From assembly GCA_965113315.1 (NCBI GenBank), contig OZ220376.1: a DNA stretch of 64,000 nt. One strand, 5' to 3'. Within the stretch, counting starts at the first letter, position 1. The number at the start of each line of letters is the position of its first letter. The DNA comes from Podarcis vaucheri. Lineage: Eukaryota. The position numbers and the translations under genes were made by a program. Shown here piece by piece: positions 3,771 to 63,492 of the stretch. A model generated the notes under the pieces. The model worked only from the letters and a program-made list of their open reading frames with translations, ran no database searches and was not told where the DNA came from.

Positions 3771-9192
<5,422 letters not shown>

Positions 9193-9294
9193 CTTCGTTT
9201 CTCCGGCGAGACCCGGAAGCGCCTGCAGGGGTTGCTCTTCCGGGGCGCCAGGGAGCCGCTCTACCCGCCTCTTCTCCCCTTGGTACACGAGGAG

Positions 9295-12200
9295 ATGGGG
9301 CGGAAGCGGCAGCAGCAGCAGCAACGGCGGCAGCGGCAGCGGCAGCCCCGGCCGGGACCCCCTCTCGAGGCCTTCGCGGAGGCGGAGGATGAGGAAGGCC
9401 CCGGCGGCGACTCCGGCCCCATCTCGGGCGGGGACCCGCTCCGCGGCCACTCTTCCTCCTCCCCCGTCAAGGGCGCGGCGGCGGGGTCGTCCTCGCCGTC
9501 GTCGGCCGAGCCGGAGCCGGGTAGCGGCAGCGTCCGGGGATGCGGCGAGGTCCGGGCATCGCCTTCTCCCCCGCTGGCCATGTGGGACTTGGGCCACTGC
9601 GACCCGCGGCGCTGCACGGGGCGGCGGCTGGCGAGGAAGGGGCTGGTGCGGACGCTGCGCCTGGGGCAGCGCTTCGGAGGCGTCATCCTCAGCCCCGCCG
9701 CCACCCGCTTCGTCTCCCCCGCAGACAGGTGAGCGGGGCCGGCGGAGCTAGGAAGGTGTTAGAAGGAAAATCTGCTCCCTTTTCCCTTATGGGGTATCCA
9801 AGAGCCCGTAGAGAGTCCTTATGTAGGTTCTCTATCGGTAGGAGAAAATAACAGAGAATATTGAGAAGCAAAGCAGCTAGTAAGCCGGATCTTTATTGAA
9901 CTGTTGCAACAGGGTGCTCACTCAACACATTCAGGAGCGAGGAGCAACCCAGAACATTTGTGTGCAAGCAGTTATATAGACTTTTGAAATAGCCTACCCT
10001 GTAGCTCAAGACCACCCCCCAAAACATCATACATACATCACAGAAAGAGGTGGTCCCCCGCATAAATTTGTTGTGTGTGTTGCTTCTCTCCTGTCAGCCA
10101 GGATACCTGATAATGCTTTATATGATTGCCTTTTCTGGATAGCCTGGCCATTCCTTTGAGATGGTAAATACTTAGTTCCTGAATCTCTTACGCATATTGA
10201 TAGTGTTAAAAGAAAATATGGAACATGTATTAATATCAATAAAGGTCAAGCCCTTACTTCCTTTTTAGATACTTGCCAGATTGTATTTACAGGCATCTAG
10301 AGGAAAGGGGTAGCTAGCAAAGACAGGAGGAGGGTTTCTGCCCGTTTGAGGGGAAAAGGCAGGACCTTTCATCATGCTATACTATACTCAGGGCCACTCA
10401 ACGGTAATGTTGGGCAGACAAAATAAAGCAGCTCTTCACACAGCTGGTAATAAACTCTGGAATTTGCTCACTGAGAGGCAGTGATCGCCATCAACTTGAA
10501 TGAATTTCACTGAGGATTAGACAGATTCATGACAAGCCTATCAGTGGCTTCTAGCCATAATTGTTTTGTTCTGCCTCTATTGCTGTCTCTGAATGAGTGC
10601 TGTGTTCATGCCCTGCTTGCAGGCTTCCCTCAGGCATCTGTAAGAACAGGCTGGTCCAGCTACAGGGCTGCTTTCTTCTTAGTGCTCATGTGTAGGGCCA
10701 GTATGTGGAGCCTGTAAGACTGATACTTCAGGGTTGAGGTGCGTTCCCAGCCAGTGTTCTTTTGGGGCTGTGTTCAAGTGGATGCTTCCACAAGCTAGTG
10801 AGCTGATGAAACTTCACACCTTAGGATCGATGTAACGTTGCTGAGTCCTTGGTTATTCAGATTTGTTCAGATTTGGCCACATCCAGTGTCTTCGCATGAG
10901 AAGTCTGACTTGGTGGTCTTGAGCAACTCACATCTGCTATCCTAAGTGGATCCCAAAGCAGCTCCAATGGGGTGAGAAACCAGCAACATCCTGGTTTGAA
11001 ATTGCTGTTGCTGTGTTTTTAGACAGATTGTGGCTCAGAATGGAATTGCGGTGATTGACTGCTCTTGGGCAAAGCTGGATGAGACGCCATTTGCCAAGAT
11101 GAAGGGAAGCCATCTCCGCCTGCTGCCCTTTCTGGTGGCTGCAAATCCAGTGAACTACGGCCGGCCATGCAAACTCTCCTGTGTGGAAGCATTTGCAGCT
11201 ACTTTCTACATTGTGGGTGAGGCTGGAAGAAAAGCTTGTAGGTCTAATTCTTTGCTGTAAAGTGGACTGTATGAACACATGCCTGTCTGTGTGCAGCCAC
11301 GCCTTAGTGTCAAACATATTTCCTTGATGACTGGGACAAGTTTGAAAATGTTCTGTGGGTCTGTGGGATCTGCTGAGGAATCTGGGGTCTGTTCTCTCCA
11401 CATTCCCTCCCTTCTTTTGAGCACTGCTAGGCTTACAGCAAGGTGTATGCGAATGTACACATTGCTCAATTACTTTTTAATAGCGACTTCTGTCTTTATT
11501 TTGAGCTACCTGCCTCTGTCCCAACTAACTGATTAATTGGAGAATGTGGCAAGATTTCTGAGTGATGCTATAAAATTGTCACCATAGGTCTTAACGTACC
11601 TCACAATGTCTGGTCTGGACAGTTTTATCCTAAAGTACCTCTTAATATGTTTCATTAACTGTGTTGTATTTTGATCCATGTATACAATGCACTTTTTATG
11701 CCAATGAAGTCTGATAGATAGATACTGATAGATAGATAGATAGATAGATAAAAACTTATTTCACAATGTCACCAGCAACTAGGAGGTATGAGGCTGGACA
11801 GCTTCTTTGCCTGCAAAGTACCTTGTAATTTTTTTTAAAATGCAGACTTTCTTGTCTTTATTTTAGGATTCTCTGATCTTGCCATAATCCTCTTACAAAA
11901 ATTTAAATGGGGAAAAGTGTTCCTTGATTTGAATAAAGACCTCCTGGAGAAATATGCAGCCTGTAATTGTGAAGAGGAAGTACTGAAAGTTGAACAAGAG
12001 TTTCTGGCTCATGCCCAAGAAAAAGAAAAAGAAGAAATAGGTAAGAACCTACTGATTTTTACTTCTGAGGACCTTTGAGTCTTCTTAAACAATGCCTTGA
12101 CATTGCCCTTGTCTACCCTGCACCTCCATGGTCAGGAAATCAAGTGGTGCTCAGTCAGAAAGCTGCTCCATTCTTCTGGGATGAACATATGGGATCAGTC

Positions 12201-47500: not shown

Positions 47501-48079
47501 GCCGGAGTGTATCTATCTGCAAAACATGCAATTAGAAGTACCATCCATGGAGAATCCTGCAACTGGACACGGCCTGAAGGGTTCGGCAAGGGCATCCATC
47601 CGCTTGCAGCAGCGGTTACAAGTGCTGGATATCAATTAGAGACCAACTAGAAGGGAGGAAGTGGCAGCAGAAACAATGGTGGCCTCTCACACGGAGATGT
47701 TTCAAAGCTCCCTGACGAAACACAGTTGCATGATAAAATCGGAAAGTCACAGTAATAATCCCGCCCCACATGATCTGGGCTGTGCGCGTGGCTTGGCTTA
47801 ACTCATCTACACTGAAGTCAGCAGTTTGCAGCAGAAGCCAAGGGAGTCTCTCACGGCAGCAAAGAGAGCTGTGCAAGTGTGTGTGTGTTTGGAAGCCTCA
47901 ACAGAAGCACAAAAGCAAGCAAAGCGACCCTGAATTCCATTGGTTGGGCTTTTCCTTAGAGAAGGAACTAGTTTTGGCCCTGGAGATGGATGTAGGCTGG
48001 GCTGGGAAGAGTCCTCAGGCTGGGAGCATGTGGCGCTCTAGCAGCAAGGAGGGAGGCAGGGCACTGGGGGGGGGCAGTC

Positions 48080-51000
48080 TCATTTCGCAGTGTTCTGGTG
48101 GTATATGTGTCGCCAAACCTCGTGTATCTTTTTGCACCATTTATGAGCGTTCCCACTTGGGTCCATCAGGTAGTATGTCCTGTTAGGCTACAAGTAAACA
48201 AAGGTTTAGTGCCTACTCATTCCTGCAGCAAGAACCTAATTAAGCTGATCAAGGCCAGCAGGCAATGCATGGGCTTGGGCCTCCCCTCCCTCCCCTGGGG
48301 ATGAAGGCTGCACACAGCACTTTGTACATCAGAAGTCTCCCACTGTAAAAACCAGACAACGGGCAGGAGCTATTAAAAGGCAGGGGTGGCTGTGTGAGCC
48401 AACTCTGGCCTGAGAAGGTACAAGAGTCATCAGTGTGTGGAGCTGTGTTACTGGGGAGCTGCTACTTCAGGAAGTTCTAGATCCATTTTTCAAAAAAGGG
48501 GAAGGATCCCTCAGCCAATTAACACCTCCAGCACCTTCCTCAACACCTCCAGCACCTCCCAGGAAGCACTGGCAGCTGAATGGGCCCTGCTTAATACCAC
48601 ACCTGCAAGAGCCCACAGAACAGGACCGGTCAAGTCAGAACTTGTCAGCAGGAAGAGGTCACTTACTGTGTGAACAAAGAAGGTCTTGAAGTTCTTGGCT
48701 TCCGGCCGGAGTTCCAGCGACCAAGGGATTTCTCCTTTCAGAATTTTGTTGACAGGGTCCACATAGTACAAGTGTGGCCCTTCAGTGAGCAGCAGCTGGC
48801 GCCTGCGAGCAAAGAGCCCCTGCAGAGGAGGACACAACACTTAGAGCTAAGCCAGCGCTGCAGGTCAGCAGCTTCAAAGAAAGGGTCAAGAAAGCTCTTG
48901 TTATAGAGCACAAAGGGATCAATCACAGCATCTTCTGAGCAGCTAGTTTCCTCTGCCTCTCTGCCATTACCATATGCAGCACAACCAGCTCACAGGAAGA
49001 GGAAGGGGAAGTACCTATTATATTTTTTGCCTTTCCTGCAACAGTCTCCAAACCAAATTTTGGACAAATGCTGGAAGGTCTTCAAAGCTCAAACTCTCTC
49101 CTAGGCAACGCTCTCCTTCCCCAAGACCCTCATTCCCTATGACAGCAGGGGAACTGTCATCATGGGAGCGGGACCTCCCTGAAGACCCCATCCAACACTC
49201 TATCTCTTTTGCTGTTTCCAGGTCTGGGAACCAACTTGTTCCTGGAGCTCACTGTACTCTAGATACACCCACGACTTCAGTCCAGTGGGGGGATAGTCAA
49301 ATATATGGCAGGCTCTGCAAAACACTAGAAGGCCCCCCTCCCTCCCCACTGGTTTTTTAATTTTTTTCCCGTTACCTATTACCCACCACCTGGTACACAT
49401 GGAAGAGCATACAAATAAAATTATGAAATGTGGAGGTCAAGGAGAACAAACAGGGTTACACTCCCCACCACAAACTACTACATTTGGATAATCTGCTTTT
49501 GGTTTCTCTTAGTATATGTTTCTTTCCCCTCCACTATTCTGCAGGTTTTTTTATTTCATATCCCCAAGCACTTTAGACTCACAAGTACAGTGGTACCTCA
49601 GGTTACATACGCTTCAGGTTACAGACTCTGCTAACCCAGAAATAGTGCTTCAGGTTAAGAACTTTGCTTCAGGATGAGAACAGAAATCGTGCTCCAGCGG
49701 CGCAGCAGCAGCAGGAGGCCCCATTAGCTAAAGTGGTGCTTCAGGTTAAGAACAGTTTCAGGTTAAGTACAGGCCTCCGGAACGAATTAAGTACTTAACC
49801 TGAGGTACCACTGTACAATCATTTAAAGAATGAATCCGAGGCACAGGATAAGGTGACTTACCTTCCGTTTGTCAACTGGACCCATTTTCAGTATTAGATT
49901 ATTTTCTACAAACTGGTGCCTGAGAAGAAAACATCACCGTGTGTTATTTCCATCAATCCATCATTCATTGCCAAGCCATCCACTTACAGGCTTTTAGAGA
50001 CAGAGTGTCAGTGAGAGGAGGAAAAGTAGCCAGCAGCCAGATGGGCGCTCCCTGCTAAGGGCATTGTGCTCAGCGCGCAGAGGAAAAAGGTCTCTAGCAG
50101 CACTTTTATGGGACTGTCAGCTCTGGGTCACATCCCATGGCAGAAATTGGCTGCATTTCTAAGCTCTGGTGAATTCAAATGGTCCTGGTTCCCCCTTTTC
50201 TAAAGCCCGAGATTCTGCCACCCTCCATTGTTAGGAACACGCAAGTGAGGTGCAAGATTGATGAAGCTGAACTTTATTTGTGGAGCAGGACGTCACTCGG
50301 GAGGGGGGAGAGAAAGCAAGTGCAAGCACATGCGCGCACACACATTTGCATAAACCACTCTATGGAAAAAAACCGCCACACCCCGCAGTGCTTACCAGGG
50401 ATTTCCACCAGCCTGCTTTGCCAAGAGTAACCTTTTCTCCTTTTCAGAGAACTGGAGGTCCAGCTCAAAGGAATTGCTGTCGAGGTTGTGAATGTATTGC
50501 TCTATGTTGTTGCTGCTGCCTGAGGTTGGTGGGGTGGACGTCTCCGGGGAAGACAAGGACTGAGAAGAGGCGGAGCCAGACACTTGCAGGCAGCCAAACT
50601 GACTCAGGAGATTGTCATACTATCAAAACAAGAAAGATAGTTTTCAGAATAAATGGGGGGAAAGTATGTGGCATCTTATCCTTTTCTTCTGACCAATATT
50701 TCTGCCAACATAATATTCAAGTTGTCTTCAAGAGTAAATCCAGCAACATTAATGGATCTAAATTAGATGTGCCAATGAATGTGACTAACAATGGATATAA
50801 TCAATGTTATTTATTATTCTGAATGCTCTCTTTAAATGCTAATAATACTATCATGTATTTACGCTGTATAAACACTGTAAGCCCATACTTTAGGAAAGCT
50901 ACACATTTCATCTGCAAGAAAACAAATGGCTTCCAACATACAGTATCATAAAATACTGTATTTTTTCGTGTATAAGACTATATTCCCCCCCCCAAAAAAA

Positions 51001-54000
51001 ATTAGTTTAAAATTGGGGGGTTTGCGTCTTATACATAGAATGTTGTGATTATTTATTTCTTAATTTAGGCTTAAAATCGTCTTATACATGGGGGCGTCTT
51101 ATACACGGAAAAATACGGTAACTGTGTGGCCATCTTTTATTTTACTCAGTACATCACTTTTGCCATCAAGGCAAAATCCCATTCATTTTCTGGCCACTTG
51201 TTCTGCTGTTAGTGATATTCTTCATTTCTTTGCTTAAAAACATTCTTGCATCAATTCACAAATGGGACTAATTCCTCGTGCTCTGTCTCACTGAGGCTTC
51301 AACACAATTTAGTAAGGACAAGACCTAGAGAGGTTTCATATTTACTGTAAAATGCTTGATCTGCTTCCACTTTTTAATAATAGCATTAATAATAACCACC
51401 TCCCTTCTCCTGTTGACACTTCCAGCACATGCTTATACTTAAGAAAATCAGTAGGCTTCCCAAGATTTTCACTGGAATGATTTTACCTATATTCTGCAGC
51501 TATTTAACTAAATTTTATGGGTGATTTACAAGTCGTAAGAGGCCAATTTAAATCAAGAGGCTCCAGTAGAGTGATTTCAATGGGTCTACTATTGAATATG
51601 ACACTGAGACACTGGATATCACTCTGCATCGTAATAAAGGGTTATTTTACCTAATTTCCCCAAATCAGCTAATTTCCTCAGAGCAATCCTCATCCAATCT
51701 GGGTACGGTACAGGAGAGTGTGATGGGCAGCATAGCCACTGCTCCATCAGTTGCACATGTCAACCAGGACAGATGTGGGGACAAACAAACCCTTGCTCCA
51801 CTCTACAGTCCACCCTGGGACTGCTGACAGCAGTGGAGCCAGTTCAGTCCTCCCTCTCCAGAACACCCCATTTGGCAGGCAGCATGAGAAATTCAGTGGT
51901 GCTGGAGGAGTGCTGCTGAAGCCACTCTGAACAGCAGAAGGAGATTTCTGCCCTATCCATCCATGCTACCCACCCTCAATATGGCAGATGAGGGGGCTTG
52001 GGTCGCAGCCTCATTTCTTGATTCACTATTTACATAATTTATTACCCATTTTACGTTAAGACACTCAAGCCAAAGGGGGGGGGAAGGTTTGTTGGATTCA
52101 AATTTCTCCTAATTTCTGAATGATCAATAGTCCTGCCTTGATTGATTAAATCTATGTATCAGAAAAATCCCCGTCTCCAAATTTTAAAGCCTGTATCTTT
52201 CACAAATTTCACCAGCGATCCCATATTTTTAACCAGCTGGAAACTAGAACATTTCCTTTTACTTGCTTTGTTTCATTATCTCCCCACAGTACATCCATGT
52301 ATCACTCTTTAACCCTCCACTTGCATGCAGAAATTCTGCGAGAGAGGGAGGAAGCTGGGAAGGAGCTCTGCTTTCAGCTCAGTATCTGCTCTCACCCTCT
52401 GGTCATGTGAACTTTACAAGTGAAAGTGAGGGTGACAGAGGAGCCAAGGATTAGACCAGAGCAAGAACTACAGGCCTATTTCTCCCTTGAAGGATGCAAA
52501 TGTATTGAAAAGACCTTTATGGAGCATGGTAGATCAAAATGGGCACTCCTACTGCGACTGCTGAGATGGATGGAGAAGGATGTGAGGCACTCACAAGGGC
52601 AAACTGCCCTTCAGGAGCCTTTGATCTTCCCTGGCATCAGTATCAAAGCCTGCACTTACATTTCCATAGCAATCCTCATCATCTTCTGACATTGCGGGCA
52701 AATATGCAGTGAGCTTGGGTGGTGTCTGAAGATGCAGATTCTCCCAGGTGATGGAGTCGAAAAAGGGGTGGGCCTTCAAGGGCTCATATCCTCCCATTTC
52801 TTCACAGCCTAACCTCTTGGTAGCATCTTGGACCTGGTTAAGTGAAGACACAGTTACATTTTCCCTGGAAAGACTCAGGGGGCGTCTCTGGCTCCACTCC
52901 CTGTCATTTCAGATCTTGGTGACTCACGTCAGTCCACCTCTGTGGACAATCTGTTAATGTGGGACCTTTGATGTACCTAGTAGAAGCGAGACTCCAGGAA
53001 GGAGGAGGACAATTGAGATTTCTTCTCCAAGTACCCCTTCATGGTGATTCACAAGGGGCTTTTGCAATAACCCGTGAAACAAAGGCTTGTATAGGTTTAA
53101 CTGGTGTAAAGCAACGGGATAGACATCCTCTAAAGGAACTGGTCATGAAGTCAACTTGCTTCCTGGAGCAAGTGGGAGGCAAGTGGCCAATTAAAAGAGA
53201 AAAGAGGTGGAAGGAGACAGGCAGGAAGGAAAGGAATGCTGGTTGCTGGCCTTGAGGCTGACATCTGTATCATATGGTACTTGTGGTGCTAAAATCTTGA
53301 ACACCAACTGACTGAAAAGTTCCAGCTAGTTTGGGAACCAAGCTAACAGTCTAGTTCCATGAAGAGAGGGAAAGTAGAGGGGGGGGGCCTTAGCTGGAAA
53401 TTAATACCTCAATACAAGGTATAGAGGAGTCTATCTGTGGGTCGGGGTGAGGCTAGGAAGCGAAAGGGCAGAAAACCCCATGGGAAGGCGGTGGGGACTA
53501 AGAAACAAGGCCCTGAAGATGCTTTGTGGAAAAGCAGGAGGGACAGGGAACAAGTCAAAGGGGCAACAGTTGGTGGGCGGGACTCTGAAGCCTAGAGGGC
53601 CAAAACACCGGCTGGGGTAGAACAGCAGCAATGAGTACCACATTTTGTGCAAGTTATCTGACTGGAGGCTTCTAGCATGGATTGGAAACTTTTGACAATA
53701 CAATTCATTTACCAAAAGCTTTTCTACGAGATCTTTTGCCTTCGGAAAGAACTTCTCTGGGAATTCATACTCCAATTTGATTATCTTCTGGAATATGAGA
53801 TATTCATTTCTGCAAAAAGGATGGGGAAAAGTATAGTTACATCTATGCAAACATTTCCTATAAGTCTACTTCAAGGTTGAAACTATACCACCCTATGGGT
53901 ACACGGGCAAACACTAACTTGGTGGGAAGTCTGGCACTGGTGTGCTCCAAAATCTTACCCGGCTCTGAATGGTGGTAATCCTGCTACAAGCTGGTATACG

Positions 54001-57000
54001 ATGCAGCCAAGAGCCCACAGATCCGAACTTCATCATCAAGACAGGCAAAAAGATGAGAAGGCAAAGCAGAAGAGTTAGCACTGTGGGCGTATCCAATGTC
54101 ACCATCTCCTAGTTCAGGCACCCACAACAAAAGCATACAACATATTCCCTTTCAGGCAGAGCTGCAAATTCCCCTGGAGTATCAGACTCTAATTTACTCA
54201 GAATGCCTGGTAAAGGCACCTTGAAGAAAAGGTGTTTATCCCTGGGCATTTCCCAAGGATCTGATGCAGAAGCTGCCACTGTGCACTTCCTGAACCAGAT
54301 CTATGTATTTCCTCATCTTGGGTTAGGCTCCCACAGGAAGGACGGAAACAGCAGAAGAGAGACTTCAGCAAGGTCCCAATAGGGCTGAGCGATATCAGCT
54401 TTTCAATAACGCAGTGTATCGCCAGCCAAACATCGCAGTTTGGTGACATACTGTGATGCTGAAAAAACAAGATGCATTGGCCTCTCCCTGAAAAACACTG
54501 GGTGAAACTGCCCCAGCTCTCACCTCAAGTGCTGAGGCAGTTTCACCGAGACTCGTGGGTTAGGACAATGCAACTTGTTTGCGCTGGGCTGGGGGCTCTT
54601 TTAACTGCTCAACTAAGGAAAGGATAGCTGCACACTCCTCAGCCAAGCAGCTGAAAGATCCATAGGGAGGAAACAGCTGTATCGGCGCCTCGCCAATAGA
54701 GCTTGTTTCTCCCTCTCGGTTGTATAAGGGCTGTATTGGGACCTAGGCCTGGGTGATATATTGATATATTGCCCGGGACTAGTATGAGGAGCAGACCGCG
54801 ATGTTGGCTTCACTCAGCGGTATATCGCTGGTGAAACCGCCACTGCTCCCGAGTCCCTGTGTTAGCGGTGCCTGCTGGAGGAAGGACCAGTCCTGGGCAA
54901 TATATTGATATATCGGCCAGGCCCAGGTCCCAATACAGCCCTTTGAAGAAGATCCCAAGCTAAATAGGTGCTTAAAAAAATAGAAATAAATTAAATAGCC
55001 CACACAGAGCTTTCTTGTTCTCTGTCTTGTTTAATGTACAAACCAAGTAAAACGGCAAGAGATTGCAGCAAGAAAACATGATGACAATGCTTAGAACGTC
55101 TTGTCTCATGTTTTGCTGGTATGTTATGTTAAATCCAAGGGCTAATGAACTATTCATGTTACATAAAAGTAGACAAAAGCAATCCTAACAGCCATTGTCA
55201 TGCTGTTTAAAAATTTTCAGTGTTGATTATGCAGGAGGCACTGAGGCACAAGAATGGGGTACACCCTAATGGAAATAGGCTTCACCCATTTGCCTTGAAG
55301 ATCTCTCTCTCTCTCTGTCATAAAACGCCTCTACAAAGGCAACGTATGTAACTCACCTTTTGCAGGCAGACTTCTCTGTTAACAGCTCTGGAGACACATA
55401 CTGTGCTGTCCCAACAAAGGAGTTCGCCCGTGCTGAAGAAACCAAGATGCAAGTAAGCATTTAATCATTAAAAATGTCCTTACAAGGTCCTCATGAAGGC
55501 TTGGATGTGTTCATTTGGAACAATGCTTTCACTTTTGTTGTGCAATTCAAATTTCATCAGCTTTTATTTAACTATATTTGTAGGCATCCAATATTACATA
55601 ATGACTATTGTTTTTCAAACACTCCCCGCCCCCTCAACACTAAGCATTACTAAGCAGTATTTCACCCCATGGGCACCCCACTATCACCTGATTTCAGCTG
55701 CCCCATTTTAGTAACCCCGCAGGTTCCCTCTCTGATGTCATCTCCTGCGGTATAGCCATCTTACCTTTACTCAGTAAAGAACCGTCATAAACCCCATTGA
55801 GACGTAGCATTGGATACTGTGGTCAGTTTTAAGGAATTTGAAACTGCAGAAGGTTGCTTTAGTCGTTGACAGGTTGAGAAATTGCACTCACCTCGCTTGC
55901 TGTCTGCAGACAATACTTTTGCTGTCCCAAAGTCTGTAATCTGAATGTGCATGTCTCCGCTGAGCAAAATGTTCTCTGGCTTCAGGTCCCTGCAAAAGGC
56001 ACAGCTGGGAATGAGCCATGCATGCATAGAGTCATGTCATCACCAACAATTTGTGTCCCCTGGGGAAATCCCGAGTTGTCAATGTAATGCCCTAACCATG
56101 GAAAGCTGATTCTCCCCCAGGCTTCTAAAGTAACAGCAGCTATCTAGGAAATTAAGCCTGTCCTTTGGCCTTTACTGTCTCTGCCTGTTCTGGTAGGTTT
56201 GAAGTAGATTCCTACCTGCTCCTCTGCCTGGTATTGGGAGCTGCTTCCCAAATGAGTAGGAGGGGACTAGGCAGCAGGGGGACATGGAGCAGATCTGAAT
56301 GTTAGATCATGCTGAGTTCTTCTCTTCTGCCTTCTGCTGCAGGCAGGCAAAGAGTATGGAAGAGGCGCTACATTTACTCTGCTAGCGACCTGGCAGAATG
56401 GGACGTCCCTCTCCTCTACAAAAAAAAAAAAAAAAAAAACCCAAGGCAAAAGGCGACAGAGAGAGAGAGAGAGAGATTTCAACTGTCCAAAATCCCCATC
56501 TGGATACTTTGTACTCCAAGGCAGCCAATGCATTGTGCCAAATTAACTAGGCTGGTGTCGCCACAGGTGAGGAATGCAGGAAAGCCAGGAAGTCTCAACA
56601 AAGGTACCTAAGACACTGCTTGCTTGCTATGGGAACTTTTGAGTTTTGAGCCACCAGGAGAAATCTATCAGGAGGGCAACAAACGGTAACTATGACAACA
56701 GCAACAAGAACCAAGAATAGATGGATTTGAATTCATTACATTACCTGTGAATGATTCCCTTTCCGTGCAAGTACTCTAATGCAGACACAATTTCAGCAGT
56801 ATAAAACCTAGTACATGTCTCATCAAATGAGCCAATCTTCCGGATGTACTTTAGAAGCTCTCCATTTTTGGCATAGCTAAGACCAAAATCTGAATCCTAA
56901 GTTAAGGATAATTTATACTGTGAATCTCTGGACCCTAAAACACAAAGGCAGATAATCTGGGGCAATGTTAGAAGGGATAGGTGGCGATATGCTTGGAAAA

Positions 57001-60000
57001 AGAAGGCTGGACTCTGCACACAGCCAAAGATTTACAGTATTGGCCCGAATATAAGCCGCCCTTTCCCCCCAATTTCGGACCCTGAAAAGTTAAAATGCAG
57101 CTTATATTGGAGTTTTTTTTTTTACCTTATGCTGCTGAAAGCAGCTGGGGAGCGTGTGTTTGGCGGGGGGGGGGGGTGCGCCTCCCAGCTAGTTGGCGGC
57201 GTGCACTCCCTAGCTGTTTGACGGGGTGGAGTGGCACGCCCACCTCCCAGCTGGTTGGCGGTGGGGGTGGAGCATTCGCACCACCAACCAGCAGGGAGGC
57301 GGGCACGCCACTCCCCCGCCCCCTGCCAAGCAGCTAGGGAGCATGCGCAGCCTCCCAGCTGGTTGGCGGTGCGCACACTCACTAGCTGGTTAGCCTGCGC
57401 ACGCTCCCCCCCGCCAAGCAGCTAGGGAGCACGCATACCGCCAACCAGCTACACAAGCCGGTGCTGGCGCTCAGCTCCGAGCATGCTCCGTGCCTGCCTT
57501 CTGGCACTACCGCCCTGAACAGGGGGTGGCTGGCACCAACACCTGTAAATAAACCTTGAATTTTAAGTGTGCAGCTTATATTTGGGCCAATACGGTACAG
57601 CGGTTAACTTAGTCTCCAACCATTTTGGGACAAGGGGCACATTTGGAGATAAAAGAAACTTGTGGACACCACCAAATACACATTCCACAGAGGAAAAACT
57701 GGTGGTATTCAGAAACAGCCCCATACACCTAAAAGGCAAAGCACAGACACCTAGAGACAAATAAAACACAGTAAAAACAACAACAAACTTCCTCCCACCA
57801 CAAAAACTAGGCAATCTCATCAAACAAAAAAAATGTAAATATAAATTAAAACATAAAAAGTGGGAGAGGGGGGCTGAGTGGGGTGCCTTAAGGCACTGTC
57901 ATACCCATGGGGAGGCAAGACTCGTCCTCTGCCAGGTTTACAAGATTTTTCACATTTGTATCCTGCCTAAGAATTCTGGTACACCTATTCTGAAAACATC
58001 ACTGGGTTAGCAAATGAAGAAACATGGTTCTTTTTCCCCACACACATTATCCCAACAAATATCACCATGAAACATTTCCATCCAGAAGGATACAGAGCTT
58101 CTCATCATCCTGAAAGGTGAAGTAGAGATTGACAAAGAAAGGGTGATCCAGGCAAGACATGATATCTTTCTCCCTATTCACGCACGGCACCTTGCCCTCT
58201 TTTATGATGTGGCGCTTCTCCAGAATTTTAACTTTTAAAAAGACAAATAAGTTACAACACACTTGGGAAATACACAGTGAAGCTGCAAACTCATCTGCTC
58301 TGCTTGACTATGAAGCTACACTTAGAAAGCAGCTTCCCACAAAAGCAGCAGCAGGCGTAACCTAGACTTCCTTTGGCTCCATTATGAGGACAGGACATCA
58401 TCCATCTAAAATCCACACCCTAATGAAGAAAGGGTTACTCACTGGCATATTCTCTGGAGGTAGACAATTCTCTGGCCAAGAAGACCTGTTAAATGGGAAA
58501 TAAGAACTGCCTTATGTTTTGCACGCAACTAAGATCCCACAAAAGGTCTCCAACCTACTGAGGGGGTGAGTGGAAAGGGGGAATTCCACCCATTGGAGCC
58601 CAGGCCCCCAAGGGACCATTGCTCTATCCACACCAGTTACATCAGCCAGTCTCATACACATTCCCAGCACTCCCTAAAGACAACATGTAGGAACAGTTCT
58701 GGCAGTTCTCCCAACTTCCTAGGGCAGATTTTTTTCTGGGGGGTGGGGGAGTGGGAGTCACTGCACTGGCCTTTGCTAGTGTGCTTGGTTAGTTGAATCT
58801 GGCCCTATATGTCCAGAAGGGAAGAGGCAAACCATCATTTTGTAAGAAGTCCTAAAATCCAGGAATCCTAAGGTACCCAAGAGGTTTTTTGTTTTTGATT
58901 TTGGGGGGGGGGCAGCTATAGCAAGCAATGACACATCACAGGGGTGGAGAGTCAAAACCTGCCAATGGAACATGTGCACAACAGCAGGGGTTCAATGAGG
59001 ACAGACAGAGGTGGTAACCTCATCTCACTAAAAGTCTGGTGTGAGACTGCAGGGGCCACAAGAGGACAAAAAGCACCAGAACAGTCAACAGCTGTGAACA
59101 TTATTTCTCTGACCTCCTGCAGAGCCAAGTAGAACCTTCCTCCGGGCAAGCGGGTGGGCAAAGTGCTTTCCTTAGAGAATGCTAAGTGGGGAGGGGAGGG
59201 GAGGGGAGGGGAGGGGAGGGGAGGGGAGAGAACTGTCTGAATGATACACAAAGGCCAAATGGCTGGCTTCTGCCATGACACTCCCAGAACCCACAGTTGC
59301 AGTAGATACTCACTGTTGAGAAAGACCCTTCGCCCAGAATCTTGACAAAGTTAAAGTCCTCTGGGCGTTTCTTTCGAGGCTGTGGAGGTTGCTGCAAGGA
59401 TTTTTCACTCCCCCTTGGCTCAGCCGTTGTGCCCTCCATGCTCAGTCCCTGCCTGCTGCCACAGGAAGCAGCAACAGGTGAAGGGCTGGGATCTGCCTGG
59501 TTCCTCACCATTGATGGTGATGGGCAGGAACATAAAACCACGCTGGACTGGATTGGAACAGCATCGTACTGAAGGAAAGAGAAAGAATGTACATGATGCT
59601 GCAGCTTGCAATCTATTAGCCACACATCCCCGTATACAAGTCGGAAATATGCCGAAGTTCAGGAGTGCTGCTCCCCACAAAAAGGGGGGGCTACAGGCAC
59701 CTACCGGTGATCATGGCAGCTATGCTACATTGCTGTGATTCCATAGATCAAGCATGTACAAAACACACAAAAATGGCCACCTCATGACCTGAATTTCAAG
59801 AGTCAAGAGTTGCCACCTTACTGCTTCACAAATAATTACTATTACTAATTACACACCCTTTACCCTAAGGTCCCAGCCTATACTTGAATCTATAAAAGCC
59901 AAAGTCTTTCAGATCACAGCAGGTCTTCAGAGATCTGAAGGCTAAAGGAATCCAACCCACAAAGTTTGGAAGCTGCCTGAAGAACTTGGTAAGTCTAACA

Positions 60001-63000
60001 CACACATCCAATTAGCTAGACAGAAACTGAAACAGTCTGAAACCATTTGGCGTTTTAATATTTGACACGCAAACTAGTGAAAAGAGCAGCTTACTCAAAT
60101 GAAATAATAATTCTGCAATTCATGGCTTTAAAATATCTTTACATAACCAAAGACACCAGAGACTCAAGATGGGACCCTCTGCATGAAAAGCAGGTACATT
60201 ACCTACTAACTTACAATTCCTCCACTATTTTATTACAATGTGCTCCTAGGACCTCTGGTCATTCTGTCATCTTACCGTAGAATAGTAGCCTCCAAACTAC
60301 ATTCTAATAATAATTATAAGAAACAGTAAATGTTTTTGACTGGAAGCTTAGCATATTGAGGACTGCTATAGTGAATGTATGGAATTGTGCTTCACTGATT
60401 GTTGGTGCCTGTTTTTTCATCGAAACACAGGAAACTACTGATACCAAGTCAGGCTAATTGGTCCATCTAATTCAGTATTGTTTACATTGAGAGGTATTCA
60501 AATATCCAAAGTCAAGCAGATTCCCCATTTATATCAGGAAGCTTTTCATTATCAACAAGTTCAACTTTCAGACTTTCCTTTAGACTCTTAACTTTAAGGA
60601 AATTAAATGAATGATTAATTCTTTCCTTCCTTCAGTGTTGCTATTTCTTCAGGTGAGAGGTTTATAAGATGTCAAGACTCCTCAGAAAACCCAAGTTTCC
60701 ACATCAGACTGGCTGAAACATTCCTATCCATTTGACATCGCCATTTCAATTTCCTCTGAACAGCTTATCAAGGTCTGCCATCTAGGTATGAATCCAGTTT
60801 CAGAGTAAAAATAGTGTTCCAGACTGAATAAATGAGCTAACTTGTAATGGGCCATGACTTTCATGGCTGCCTTACTATGTCCCACTTGCTCTTGCCAATG
60901 CCAAAGAAAAGTACCCAGGCCAGGTATGCGTAGGTTTGAAAGTGTTATAAAAATCCTGCTGACACATAGAATAGAAATACTATTGCCTTGATAACAGTTC
61001 CTCTACTTCTGTAGCTTATTACTTCTAACATGATTTTTAAAATGCACACACCCTTGTTACACTTACCCAGCAACTGAAATTTTATGCTGGTTTCAACCCC
61101 CACCTGAATTTTGAGTCCAGTCCATTATTTTCATTGTGTCAAAGGGTATATATCAGCAATAAACCACAGATAAAAAAGCATCAATATGGCATGAAGCTAA
61201 CTGCTTTTAATTAACTACAGTTGCTTTTATTAATCACTTCTGTTTTAACTGTTTTGTTTAGTTTTAAGAGGTTTAATGTGATTTTAATGGGATGATTATT
61301 TTATGATGCTTTATATTTAGAACAATTGTGTTCCAAGAGAAAATATACATAGCAGATAATTAAAAATAAACATAATAAATAAAGAACCTCCGGCTCTCTC
61401 AGGAGTCACAGCATGTGGTTGACTTGCCCAGGTAATGAGTTCTGTAGCCAGACAGATGGTATACAGTTACGCTGCTGCCGCCACTGATTACATCCAGCCT
61501 TGAGAAGTCTAGGATCACCAGTGAAATGCAAGTTTGTTTTGTAGCAGAATGATAACATTTTGGCAAGTACAGTATTTTATGCTCACAGCAAAGAGCAGGC
61601 AAACTGCCCCCTGATAATTACTTGCAAAGACATATATAATCCATGCCCTGGCAATATTTACAATGGAGCTTCTTCAGTATGGAACTTAACAGGTTGTGAA
61701 CAGGGCCTACAAATTTCAAGGCAGAGCCATCCCTGGATGCAGAAGCCCCATCATGTGGGATGCTAAAATCCAAGAAGCTAAGACAGCCTTCCTCAACCTG
61801 GTGCCCTTCTGATGCCTTGGACTATGATTTCAGCACAGCCATGCTGGGGGCTGCTAACGGGAATTGTAATAAAAATATGTGGAGGGTATCAGGCTCAGGA
61901 AGTTTGATCAAGGATGGTGTTACATCTGCCTATCTCTGGGGAACACAGGATAAGCAAGTGTACACTGTTTGCACACAATACATGATGCTAGGCACACACA
62001 AACTGCACAAGAAATCTGGAATCATTTTCACATTTAAGTCATTCTACAGTACTAAGAAAAGTCAAGTAAGCTGATGAAAGTGCAAAGGACACAGGCACAC
62101 CTGTTTGAAATCTGATGGTGGCATAAAGTTACACAATTCTGCAGAAAAGGCCATAAGTGTTACAGAACTTGTGGTTTGCATGTATAAAAATGTCAGGCTC
62201 TGCTCCATTCAGACTGAACTACTGTTGCCCAGCTCAGGGAATTATTGGTTGGATGAGTCATTGATTTGATTCAATACATTGTGGAGTCTTCTATGCCTCC
62301 TATGGCATATGTACTCATGGCTGGCATTTGCATTTTTAATTCTGCTGATAACAAGAGGTCATATGGGAACATCTACACTTCCTCAAACACATGTGACAAT
62401 AATGTGAGGACTGGGTAGCTGCCTGTCCTGTGCCAGTTTTCACCAGCTGATATGTATTTGTAAGTAAGTGGGAATAGGTTGGAGTTGGTGCCACAGAACA
62501 ATGGGCACTTTTTACTAAATGACACTAGAAACAGCCATGACAGTGGCCAACTGTGTCAATGAAACTACTGGGAAGAATGGCAATTACTCAAGAACTTTAA
62601 ATCAGGATGTGAAACAATTTTGAAGTAGAACAGGCTGAAAATGAACACCTCTGACAACAAGCATCAAAAGCTACACATATATTGAAAAAAGAAAAAATTC
62701 GCTCTACATCAGCACTTCCTAAGGATTGAGCATATTAGATCTCACCTCAGCTGTAAATCAACTGGGCATCCTTTGCATGACGTCTGCCTTACAGAATTGC
62801 TCCTTAACTAATATATAAGAATTTTCTTTGACCACTGGAAGATTCAGCTTTTCAATCCCTCAGGACTAGCAGGGCCCCCAAAACGGTGGGCCAAGGCGAC
62901 ACACTGCTCTATCGCTAATGGTAAGCCCGGAATGTAGCCGAAATCGCAACCTCCGTATCGCCCGCGACAGTCGGAGGCGCCAACACCCAATGCACACCGG

Positions 63001-63492
63001 AAGACGAGCTGCCCTCTCCGTTGCCGGCGGGGGAAGGAGGTGGAATTCCGAGGGCAAATGGGCGCGCCCCTCTCCGCCTAAGTGGGGCACTCACTTCACA
63101 GGGATCCCGCGCCGCTACGCAAAACAAGGCAGGCTCTGGCCGAGGCCTGCCTGCTTGTCCAGGTAAGACGACGGGAGGCCAAACACCGGGGGGGGGGGGA
63201 GGTCAGGGCCCGGCCGGCTCCTCCGCAGCTTTCGCTTCCGTGCTGTAGCCTGGGCCCCGCCCCTCTCCGGCCAGGATCCCAGGCTGACCCCGAGGCGCCT
63301 GCAGAGCCCCTGGCCAAGAGGAGACCCGGGGTCGGGGAGCGGCGAACCCCACCTTCTCTCCGCCAGAGGTCCCGCTCGCGCCGCGGCCTCCCGGAAGGCA
63401 GCGCAGGCCAAGCGGCCGCTCCTCTCCTCCCCTCGCCCCTTCCCCGCCGGCTCCCGCGCGGAGCTTACCAGGGGGCTGCCGGTGCTGGCCAT
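48080..63492 (-). CDS. PDPK1: 3-phosphoinositide-dependent protein kinase 1 (553 aa)
   Basis: Exons 63469-63492, 59314-59568, 58443-58485, 58094-58231, 56745-56889, 55892-55989, 55357-55432, 53959-54027, 53713-53809, 52660-52833, 50396-50619, 49862-49919, 48667-48819, 48080-48187 total 1662 nt. Motifs: [36 protein letters not shown], and the PH domain [20 protein letters not shown]. Confidence 0.98.
49588..49813. mobile_element. Tigger/mariner-like MITE, intact ends
   Basis: TA+CAGTGGTACCTCAGGTTA ... TAACCTGAGGTACCACTG+TA, a perfect 18-bp terminal inverted repeat. Confidence 0.92.
50956..51118. mobile_element. Short Tc2/pogo-like MITE
   Basis: TA+CTGTATTTTTTCGTGTATAAGAC ... GTCTTATACACGGAAAAATACGG+TA. 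Confidence 0.85.
54726..54943. mobile_element. Palindromic MITE with ~55-bp terminal inverted repeats
   Basis: AAGGGCTGTATTGGGACCTAGGCCTGGGTGATATATTGATATATTGCCCGGGACT ... AGTCCTGGGCAATATATTGATATATCGGCCAGGCCCAGGTCCCAATACAGCCCTT. Confidence 0.8.
56890..58093 (-). other. U12-type (minor spliceosome) GT-AG intron, PDPK1 intron 4
   Basis: 5' splice site GTATCCTT (58093-58086). Branch site TCCTTAAC (56908-56901) lies ~11 nt before the acceptor, with no pyrimidine tract. Confidence 0.93.
57035..57595. mobile_element. Tc2/pogo-like MITE with GC-rich internal repeats
   Basis: TA+CAGTATTGGCCCGAATATAAGCCGC ... GCAGCTTATATTTGGGCCAATACGG+TA; internal CCCAGCTGGTTGGCGG repeats. Confidence 0.85.
59187..59227. 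repeat. (GGGGA)n pentanucleotide repeat, G-quadruplex-capable
   Basis: About 8 G4 runs separated by single A bases, seen directly. Confidence 0.9.

Follow-up and report, generated by a model that had tools for sequence, protein, structure and literature searches.

Clustered N-lobe substitutions in the PDK1 kinase of lacertid lizards and a possible retuning of its docking-pocket control

PDK1 is an essential kinase whose N-lobe has barely changed across amniotes. Living sequences indicate that in lacertid lizards nine or ten amino-acid changes arose in this lobe ahead of the divergence of Zootoca, Lacerta, and Podarcis and have been retained. The gene described here lies in a stretch of 64,000 nucleotides from Podarcis vaucheri (contig OZ220376.1 of assembly GCA_965113315.1), referred to below as the window. 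We lean toward the reading that the single detected, spliced lacertid PDK1 is active and still docks its substrates, but with retuned coupling between the docking pocket and the active site. An initial annotation made from the letters of the window had described an intact, very likely active kinase with a lineage-specific burst of N-lobe changes that hit allosteric residues, a description that stands; its suggestion of a gene duplication and its emphasis on the phosphate pocket do not.

PDPK1 is intact on the minus strand of the window, with 14 exons (63492..48079), GT-AG boundaries at all introns, and an open frame of 553 codons (553 amino acids). The encoded protein differs at two positions from that of Podarcis, at three from that of Zootoca, and at five from that of Lacerta, and it joins an N-terminal AGC kinase domain to a C-terminal PH_3 domain. 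KCTD5 follows downstream, and then a ubiquitin-conjugating enzyme gene that we take to be UBE2I; the same neighbors occur within fused PDPK1 models of birds, geckos, and snakes. The exons of the two neighbors lie at 41748-33838 and 19408-15351 on the minus strand. Database models that fuse PDPK1 with KCTD5 are found in many birds, turtles, crocodilians, geckos, and snakes, suggesting read-through or mis-annotation. Elsewhere in the window, a GC-rich island with long open frames on both strands (9013-9758) is probably the first exon of another gene, and a repeat element in PDPK1 intron 4 (57030-57600) has very high contig depth at its ends. Residues carry human numbering, equal to the window residue plus two in the kinase domain and anchored on K111 through human PDB chains, the start residue of which is assumed. 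For the PH domain, an offset of zero, anchored on K465, is likewise our assumption. The coding features are as follows.

63469..63492, minus strand: exon 1, coding part with start codon, in a GC-rich promoter region (gene model); RNA loose ends at 59569 run on into this exon
59314..59568, minus strand: exon 2, N-terminal region, beta1, and Gly-rich loop (strand 82-90 in the structure model)
59352-59350, minus strand: K83N codon, exon 2
59346-59344, minus strand: G85V codon, exon 2
58443..58485, minus strand: exon 3, beta2-beta3 (exon 2-3 joint seen in RNA)
58482-58480, minus strand: V97F codon, exon 3
58464-58462, minus strand: S103 codon, exon 3, a variable site
58094..58231, minus strand: exon 4, K111, alphaB, alphaC, and beta4 (exon 4-5 joint seen in RNA)
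58196-58194, minus strand: N122G codon, exon 4
58184-58182, minus strand: Y126C codon, exon 4
58178-58176, minus strand: T128N codon, exon 4
58169-58167, minus strand: R131K codon, exon 4
58163-58161, minus strand: V133I codon, exon 4, a change common to Rhineura
58154-58152, minus strand: R136C codon, exon 4
58130-58128, minus strand: K144N codon, exon 4
56745..56889, minus strand: exon 5, beta5 and hinge to alphaE, unchanged against Rhineura and single copy in the genome
55892..55989, minus strand: exon 6, catalytic loop and DFG intact, with N214S and Q236R (55895-55893)
55357..55432, minus strand: exon 7, activation loop, S241 intact
52660..54027, minus strand: exons 8-10 (54027-53959, 53809-53713, and 52833-52660), C-lobe and start of the acidic linker, Y288, D368, and D371 intact, with L319Q
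50396..50619, minus strand: exon 11, linker with an NYD motif and an F383-x-x-L386 hydrophobic motif (motifs as given in the available passages of PMC8986801), and start of the PH domain
48079..49919, minus strand: exons 12-14 (49919-49862, 48819-48667, and 48187-48079), PH domain with K465 and R472-474 intact, and stop codon

All 11 N-lobe changes called in the initial annotation are found. K83N, G85V, N122G, Y126C, T128N, R131K, V133I, R136C, and K144N are confirmed against human PDK1 PDB chains, and V97F and A103S against mammalian alignment rows; the changes are identical in the entries for Zootoca vivipara, Lacerta agilis, Podarcis muralis, and P. raffonei. Residues 145-213, compared with five mammals and Rhineura, are identical in Jaculus, Trichechus, Monodelphis, and Rhineura, with one site differing in Sus and Vulpes. 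One further lacertid change had been missed: Q236R in the activation segment, five residues ahead of S241, where 75 of 76 other vertebrates have Gln. At the nucleotide level, exons 2-5 were compared with four sequencing runs, one of which (X1) may be the source of the window and is hence not independent. Exon 4 matches a contig of a related organism (X18) without a single other letter, and a neighboring intron-rich contig differs at 22 letters in ~370. RNA reads of a further organism (C) show exon 2 spliced to exon 3 and exon 4 to exon 5 where predicted. Exon 4 is covered at an RNA depth of 4-6, with no difference in exon 4 among those listed, and three exon-5 differences in reads are all silent; among the differences listed, contig and spliced reads thus support the N-lobe bases.

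The catalytic apparatus is preserved, with K111, E130, D205, K207, N210, the DFG motif, and activation-loop S241 all present; L155, also claimed as intact in the initial annotation, is so as well. The PIF groove, as composed in the available passages of PMC9330272 and PMC6327997, is unchanged at K115, I118, I119, V124, V127, L155, and F157. In the adjoining phosphate pocket, K76, T148, and Q150 are retained and R131 is replaced by Lys. Residues for dimerization (Y288), the linker, and PIP3 binding are all intact, and the linker motif has L386, with Leu in Rhineura and Paroedura too. The window PDK1 is intact and very likely an active kinase. A structure model of Podarcis PDK1 (mean pLDDT 75.9), used for secondary structure, reproduces the human PDK1 fold with TM 0.95-0.99 over target length, a match that says little on point effects. 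It places residues 83 and 85 in beta1, 97 in beta2, 122 at the alphaB-alphaC joint, 126-136 along alphaC, and 144 at the start of beta4. By PKA topology, V85 and F97 may sit on the outer face of the sheet. The two new cysteines, C126 and C136, are ten positions apart along a single helix, which makes a disulfide bond linking the two unlikely.

An alignment of 79 vertebrates (three lacertids, 34 other amniotes, and 42 anamniotes) separates lacertid changes from older variation. Four of 83 rows had been dropped: Macaca and Pelusios, with faulty-looking models, an Anolis sagrei "-like" record, and the window itself. V133I is not confined to lacertids, as Rhineura, anoles, and sharks also have it, and A, T, and S alternate freely at site 103. 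The other nine changes are absent from Rhineura, the sister amphisbaenian. G85 and K144 are invariant in all 76 non-lacertid vertebrates and V97 in 75 of them; N122, T128, and R136 are invariant in the 34 other amniotes and vary in amphibians or fishes. The replacement residues V85, F97, G122, N128, C136, and N144, and also N83, are seen in none of the 76. The proviso of the initial annotation that the residues might prove widespread or ancestral therefore applies in this alignment to two sites, in part to two more, and not to the remaining seven. The partial cases are those that recur: C126 in Tiliqua, Lerista, and Latimeria, and K131 in Tiliqua, Latimeria, and the caecilian Geotrypetes, which retains Y126. 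(These recurrences are in rows P0004, P0125, P0258, and P0158; a contig protein, P0003, has C126 with R131.)

More distant sequences show which of the residues the fold accepts. Among 83 PDK1-like proteins kept from 148 (65 were dropped because the region was not covered or the activation-loop motif was missing), K131 occurs in 49, N128 in 28, I133 in 16, N83 and F97 in 8 each, N144 in 2, V85 in 1, and G122, C126, and C136 in none. A short-protein search found no partial set of the lacertid residues among its 32 matches. In the same genome, two sister AGC kinases that we take, by the names we assign to such genes, to be PKCs have Cys and Lys at positions 126 and 131, and in one of them position 83 is Asn and position 85 is hydrophobic, as it is in five of six sister kinases. 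By analogy, the AGC fold tolerates C126 with K131, a combination native to two PKC genes. G85V, N122G, Y126C, R136C, and K144N are the radical changes.

The excess of change is specific to one branch and one region. In relative-rate counts against Rhineura, residues 83-144 give 9:0 (P=0.004) and the remainder 9:3 (P=0.15). Six triplets, which are not independent of one another, give 9:0, 10:0, 10:0, 10:0, 8:1, and 10:0 for the same residues (P from 0.002 to 0.04), with none of the six significant over the other 386 columns. Ten of the 21 lacertid-fixed changes fall within 62 of 448 columns; a sliding-window permutation that allows for the choice of window puts such clustering at P=0.005 with uniform sites, and at P=0.025 (amniote) or 0.036 (vertebrate) with sites weighted by variability. 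Branch lengths, estimated for the whole N-lobe (76-160) as a unit on a fixed species tree of assumed topology, agree: of 155 vertebrate branches the lacertid stem is the longest in the N-lobe (0.191 substitutions per site vs 0.046 in the rest), and it makes up 35% of amniote N-lobe tree length vs 7% elsewhere (Fisher P=2e-4; 0.015 after multiplication by 72 branches). The N-lobe branches of Erpetoichthys (0.183) and Rhinatrema (0.159) approach this length, and the alphaB-alphaC region therefore appears to be a soft spot that recurs outside amniotes. Frogs, too, vary in this region. Caecilians and ray-finned fishes have alphaB-alphaC clusters of their own at I119, N122, V124, P125, T128, and R136 (P0143, P0158, P0178, and fish rows), and in the aligned sequences this region is a recurrent hotspot outside amniotes.

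After the stem, change ceased. Residues 83-144 do not differ among the three lacertid genera sampled, which span a shallow crown, and only two sites vary in the 448 core columns. All of these rate tests are built on living sequences and branch lengths. Episodic selection predicts a branch- and region-specific excess of amino-acid change and a return to constraint after the shift; the lacertid stem has the first, and the second is seen within the shallow crown. Lineage-specific adaptation is plausible on this sequence evidence, although some 11 base changes across a long stem need not, we infer, exceed the neutral rate. Minimal codon paths at ten N-lobe sites, an indirect measure made without outgroup DNA, take three steps toward G/C, six away, and two that are ambiguous; N122G requires two base changes. 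GC-biased gene conversion is unlikely, as these paths mostly lose G/C.

The residues affected are known from work on human PDK1. According to the available passages of PMC6327997, peptide binding to R131 shifts alphaC, and the signal is relayed via R129, Y126, and E130 to S241, T226, and K111. Read in order, this review pairs Y126 with T226 and not, as the initial annotation had it, with phosphorylated S241. The same passages report that R131M and R131A abolish activation by PIF ligand and that R131K is unaffected; with K76, T148, and Q150 unchanged and Lys131 in 49 of 83 distant homologues, the earlier claim of a hit to the phosphate pocket was overstated. R131K and T128N are both common in distant PDK1s, and the pocket is probably kept. 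Y126 and K144 are the better-supported targets. Available text of PMC12006859 lists Y126C and K144E among mutants that alter activity or allosteric response, the direction not being given there. In that of PMC9330272, a bridge between K144 and D138 forms only in the closed form, and K144 stabilizes the closed, active state; in that of PMC12101721, PIFtide binds less well to K144A and K144E, and simulation of an autoinhibited state has the linker held by Y126, R131, and K144. Autophosphorylation is promoted by the NYD and F383/M386 motifs of the linker, as stated in the available part of PMC8986801.

These observations suggest a mechanism for the retuned coupling. Y126C would remove an aromatic link from helix alphaC to the activation segment, K144N would break the salt bridge to D138 that belongs to the closed, active state, and N122G might loosen the alphaB-alphaC joint. 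R131K with T128N would leave the phosphate pocket usable and docking possible, and G85V with V97F would add hydrophobic bulk on beta1-beta2 that may compensate or grip the linker. On balance, hydrophobic-motif peptides and the linker of PDK1 itself are predicted to activate the kinase less strongly or in a different way, and the PIF-dependent substrates (S6K, SGK, and RSK) would be affected more than PIP3-dependent AKT. The substrates themselves, judged from 20 kinase C-tail matches and three motif exons against standard motifs, with the S6K motif split across exons, look canonical, and no partner co-evolution is therefore seen. A bolder version of this mechanism is an adaptive rewiring of the master kinase of insulin/PI3K signaling, in which a PKC-like N-lobe (N83, V85, C126, and K131) has dropped the K144 latch, linker autoinhibition and the balance of S6K/SGK/RSK against AKT have changed, and a route of Y126C followed by R131K has been taken three times in vertebrates; we regard it as unlikely.

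The main alternative to retuned coupling is compensated drift, in which one or two mildly harmful changes, such as Y126C, were fixed on the lacertid stem and neighboring changes restored the behavior of an ordinary PDK1. K131 appears to have arisen four times, three of them in lineages that carry C126 and account for no more than 7.5% of tree length (P=0.002, post hoc). This pairing likely represents epistasis and fits both leading readings; epistatic compensation accounts equally well for it, for the clustering, and for the stasis. Half of the new residues occur in sister AGC kinases or distant PDK1s, C126 stands without K131 in Lerista and together with it in Tiliqua, and the substrate motifs are unchanged where seen. 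However, C126 in skinks and the coelacanth is not accompanied by the remainder of the burst, such that C126 does not force it, and losing the otherwise invariant K144 and G85 does not look like a repair. We consider compensated drift possible rather than probable.

Temporary local relaxation, in which an N-lobe contact with the linker or a binding partner disappeared or was no longer needed in early lacertids, leaving the region to drift to no advantage, is improbable. It would suit the loss of three surface basic residues (K83, R136, and K144) and the somewhat fast, though not significantly so, evolution of the rest of the protein on the stem (the 9:3 count against Rhineura), but drift of this kind should have left further change in 83-144 among the three genera, for which the crown may be too young, and it did not touch the buried PIF-groove residues between the changed sites.

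Relaxation after a gene duplication, with a conserved second PDPK1 elsewhere in the genome, had also been proposed in the initial annotation and is very improbable. In the 1.61-Gb genome, this locus was the only one recovered at PDK1-level identity in searches with lacertid exon 4, exon 5 DNA, the full bird protein (78 of 448 candidates scored), an ancestral-type N-lobe protein (75 of 75 scored), and the PH_3 family; its neighbors match those of birds, geckos, and snakes. That duplicates can occur in lizards is suggested by the two PDPK1 records of Anolis sagrei. These records (P0126 and P0128) lie on scaffolds of different length, and three residues of the beta2-beta3 loop differ in one of them, which may reflect a duplicate or a haplotype artefact. 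Assembly or sequencing error, the other explanation that the initial annotation allowed for, has a negligible chance of being correct, because the exons are spliced in RNA and the residues are identical in independent assemblies of three genera as well as in contigs and reads.

The clade-wide variant of this well-known kinase is apparently unreported. Searches pairing PDPK1 with Podarcis, or with squamates and positive selection, found no paper, subscription journals being outside their scope, and PDPK1 is not mentioned among the listed lacertid or insulin-pathway evolution papers. A 2015 study by McGaugh is said to treat the evolution of the IIS/TOR network in amniotes and may bear on novelty. 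The residues concerned receive no mention in PMC7614687, PMC7677135, or the supplement of PMC12006859. With Y126C, R131K, and a replacement of K144 in the only detected copy, lacertids offer a natural experiment on the allosteric network at which the design of PIF-pocket drugs is aimed, one that allows testing of which residues docking-dependent activation needs and how their losses are compensated. Should function prove to have shifted, a whole lizard group would show a rarely seen alteration of the intracellular core of insulin/TOR signaling.

Compared with other vertebrate PDK1s, the lacertid enzyme retains the 14-exon gene with kinase and PH_3 domains, the neighbor KCTD5, and all catalytic, PIF-groove, dimer, linker, and PIP3-binding residues, and the window protein is 92% identical to Rhineura PDK1; it differs at nine residues in 83-144 that are unlike those of Rhineura and nearly all other amniotes. 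It shares Y126C with the skinks and the coelacanth, and R131K with Tiliqua and Latimeria, but these animals lack G85V, V97F, N122G, T128N, R136C, and K144N. Conventional and novel PKC N-lobes resemble it at 126 and 131 and, in one gene, at 83 and 85, but the lacertid changes are scattered single residues over three exons with orthologous introns. The PKC likeness is one of convergence or tolerance and does not reflect a PKC chimera or gene conversion; the single-residue nature of the changes over three exons rules out conversion from another AGC kinase. Further parallels are the laboratory mutants Y126C, R131K, and K144A/E of the available literature passages. In lacertids the same positions are altered naturally, with the same replacements at 126 and 131 and, at 144, an Asn that is not among the mutants in these passages, and the set adds six or seven further changes in the only detected copy of a viable animal.
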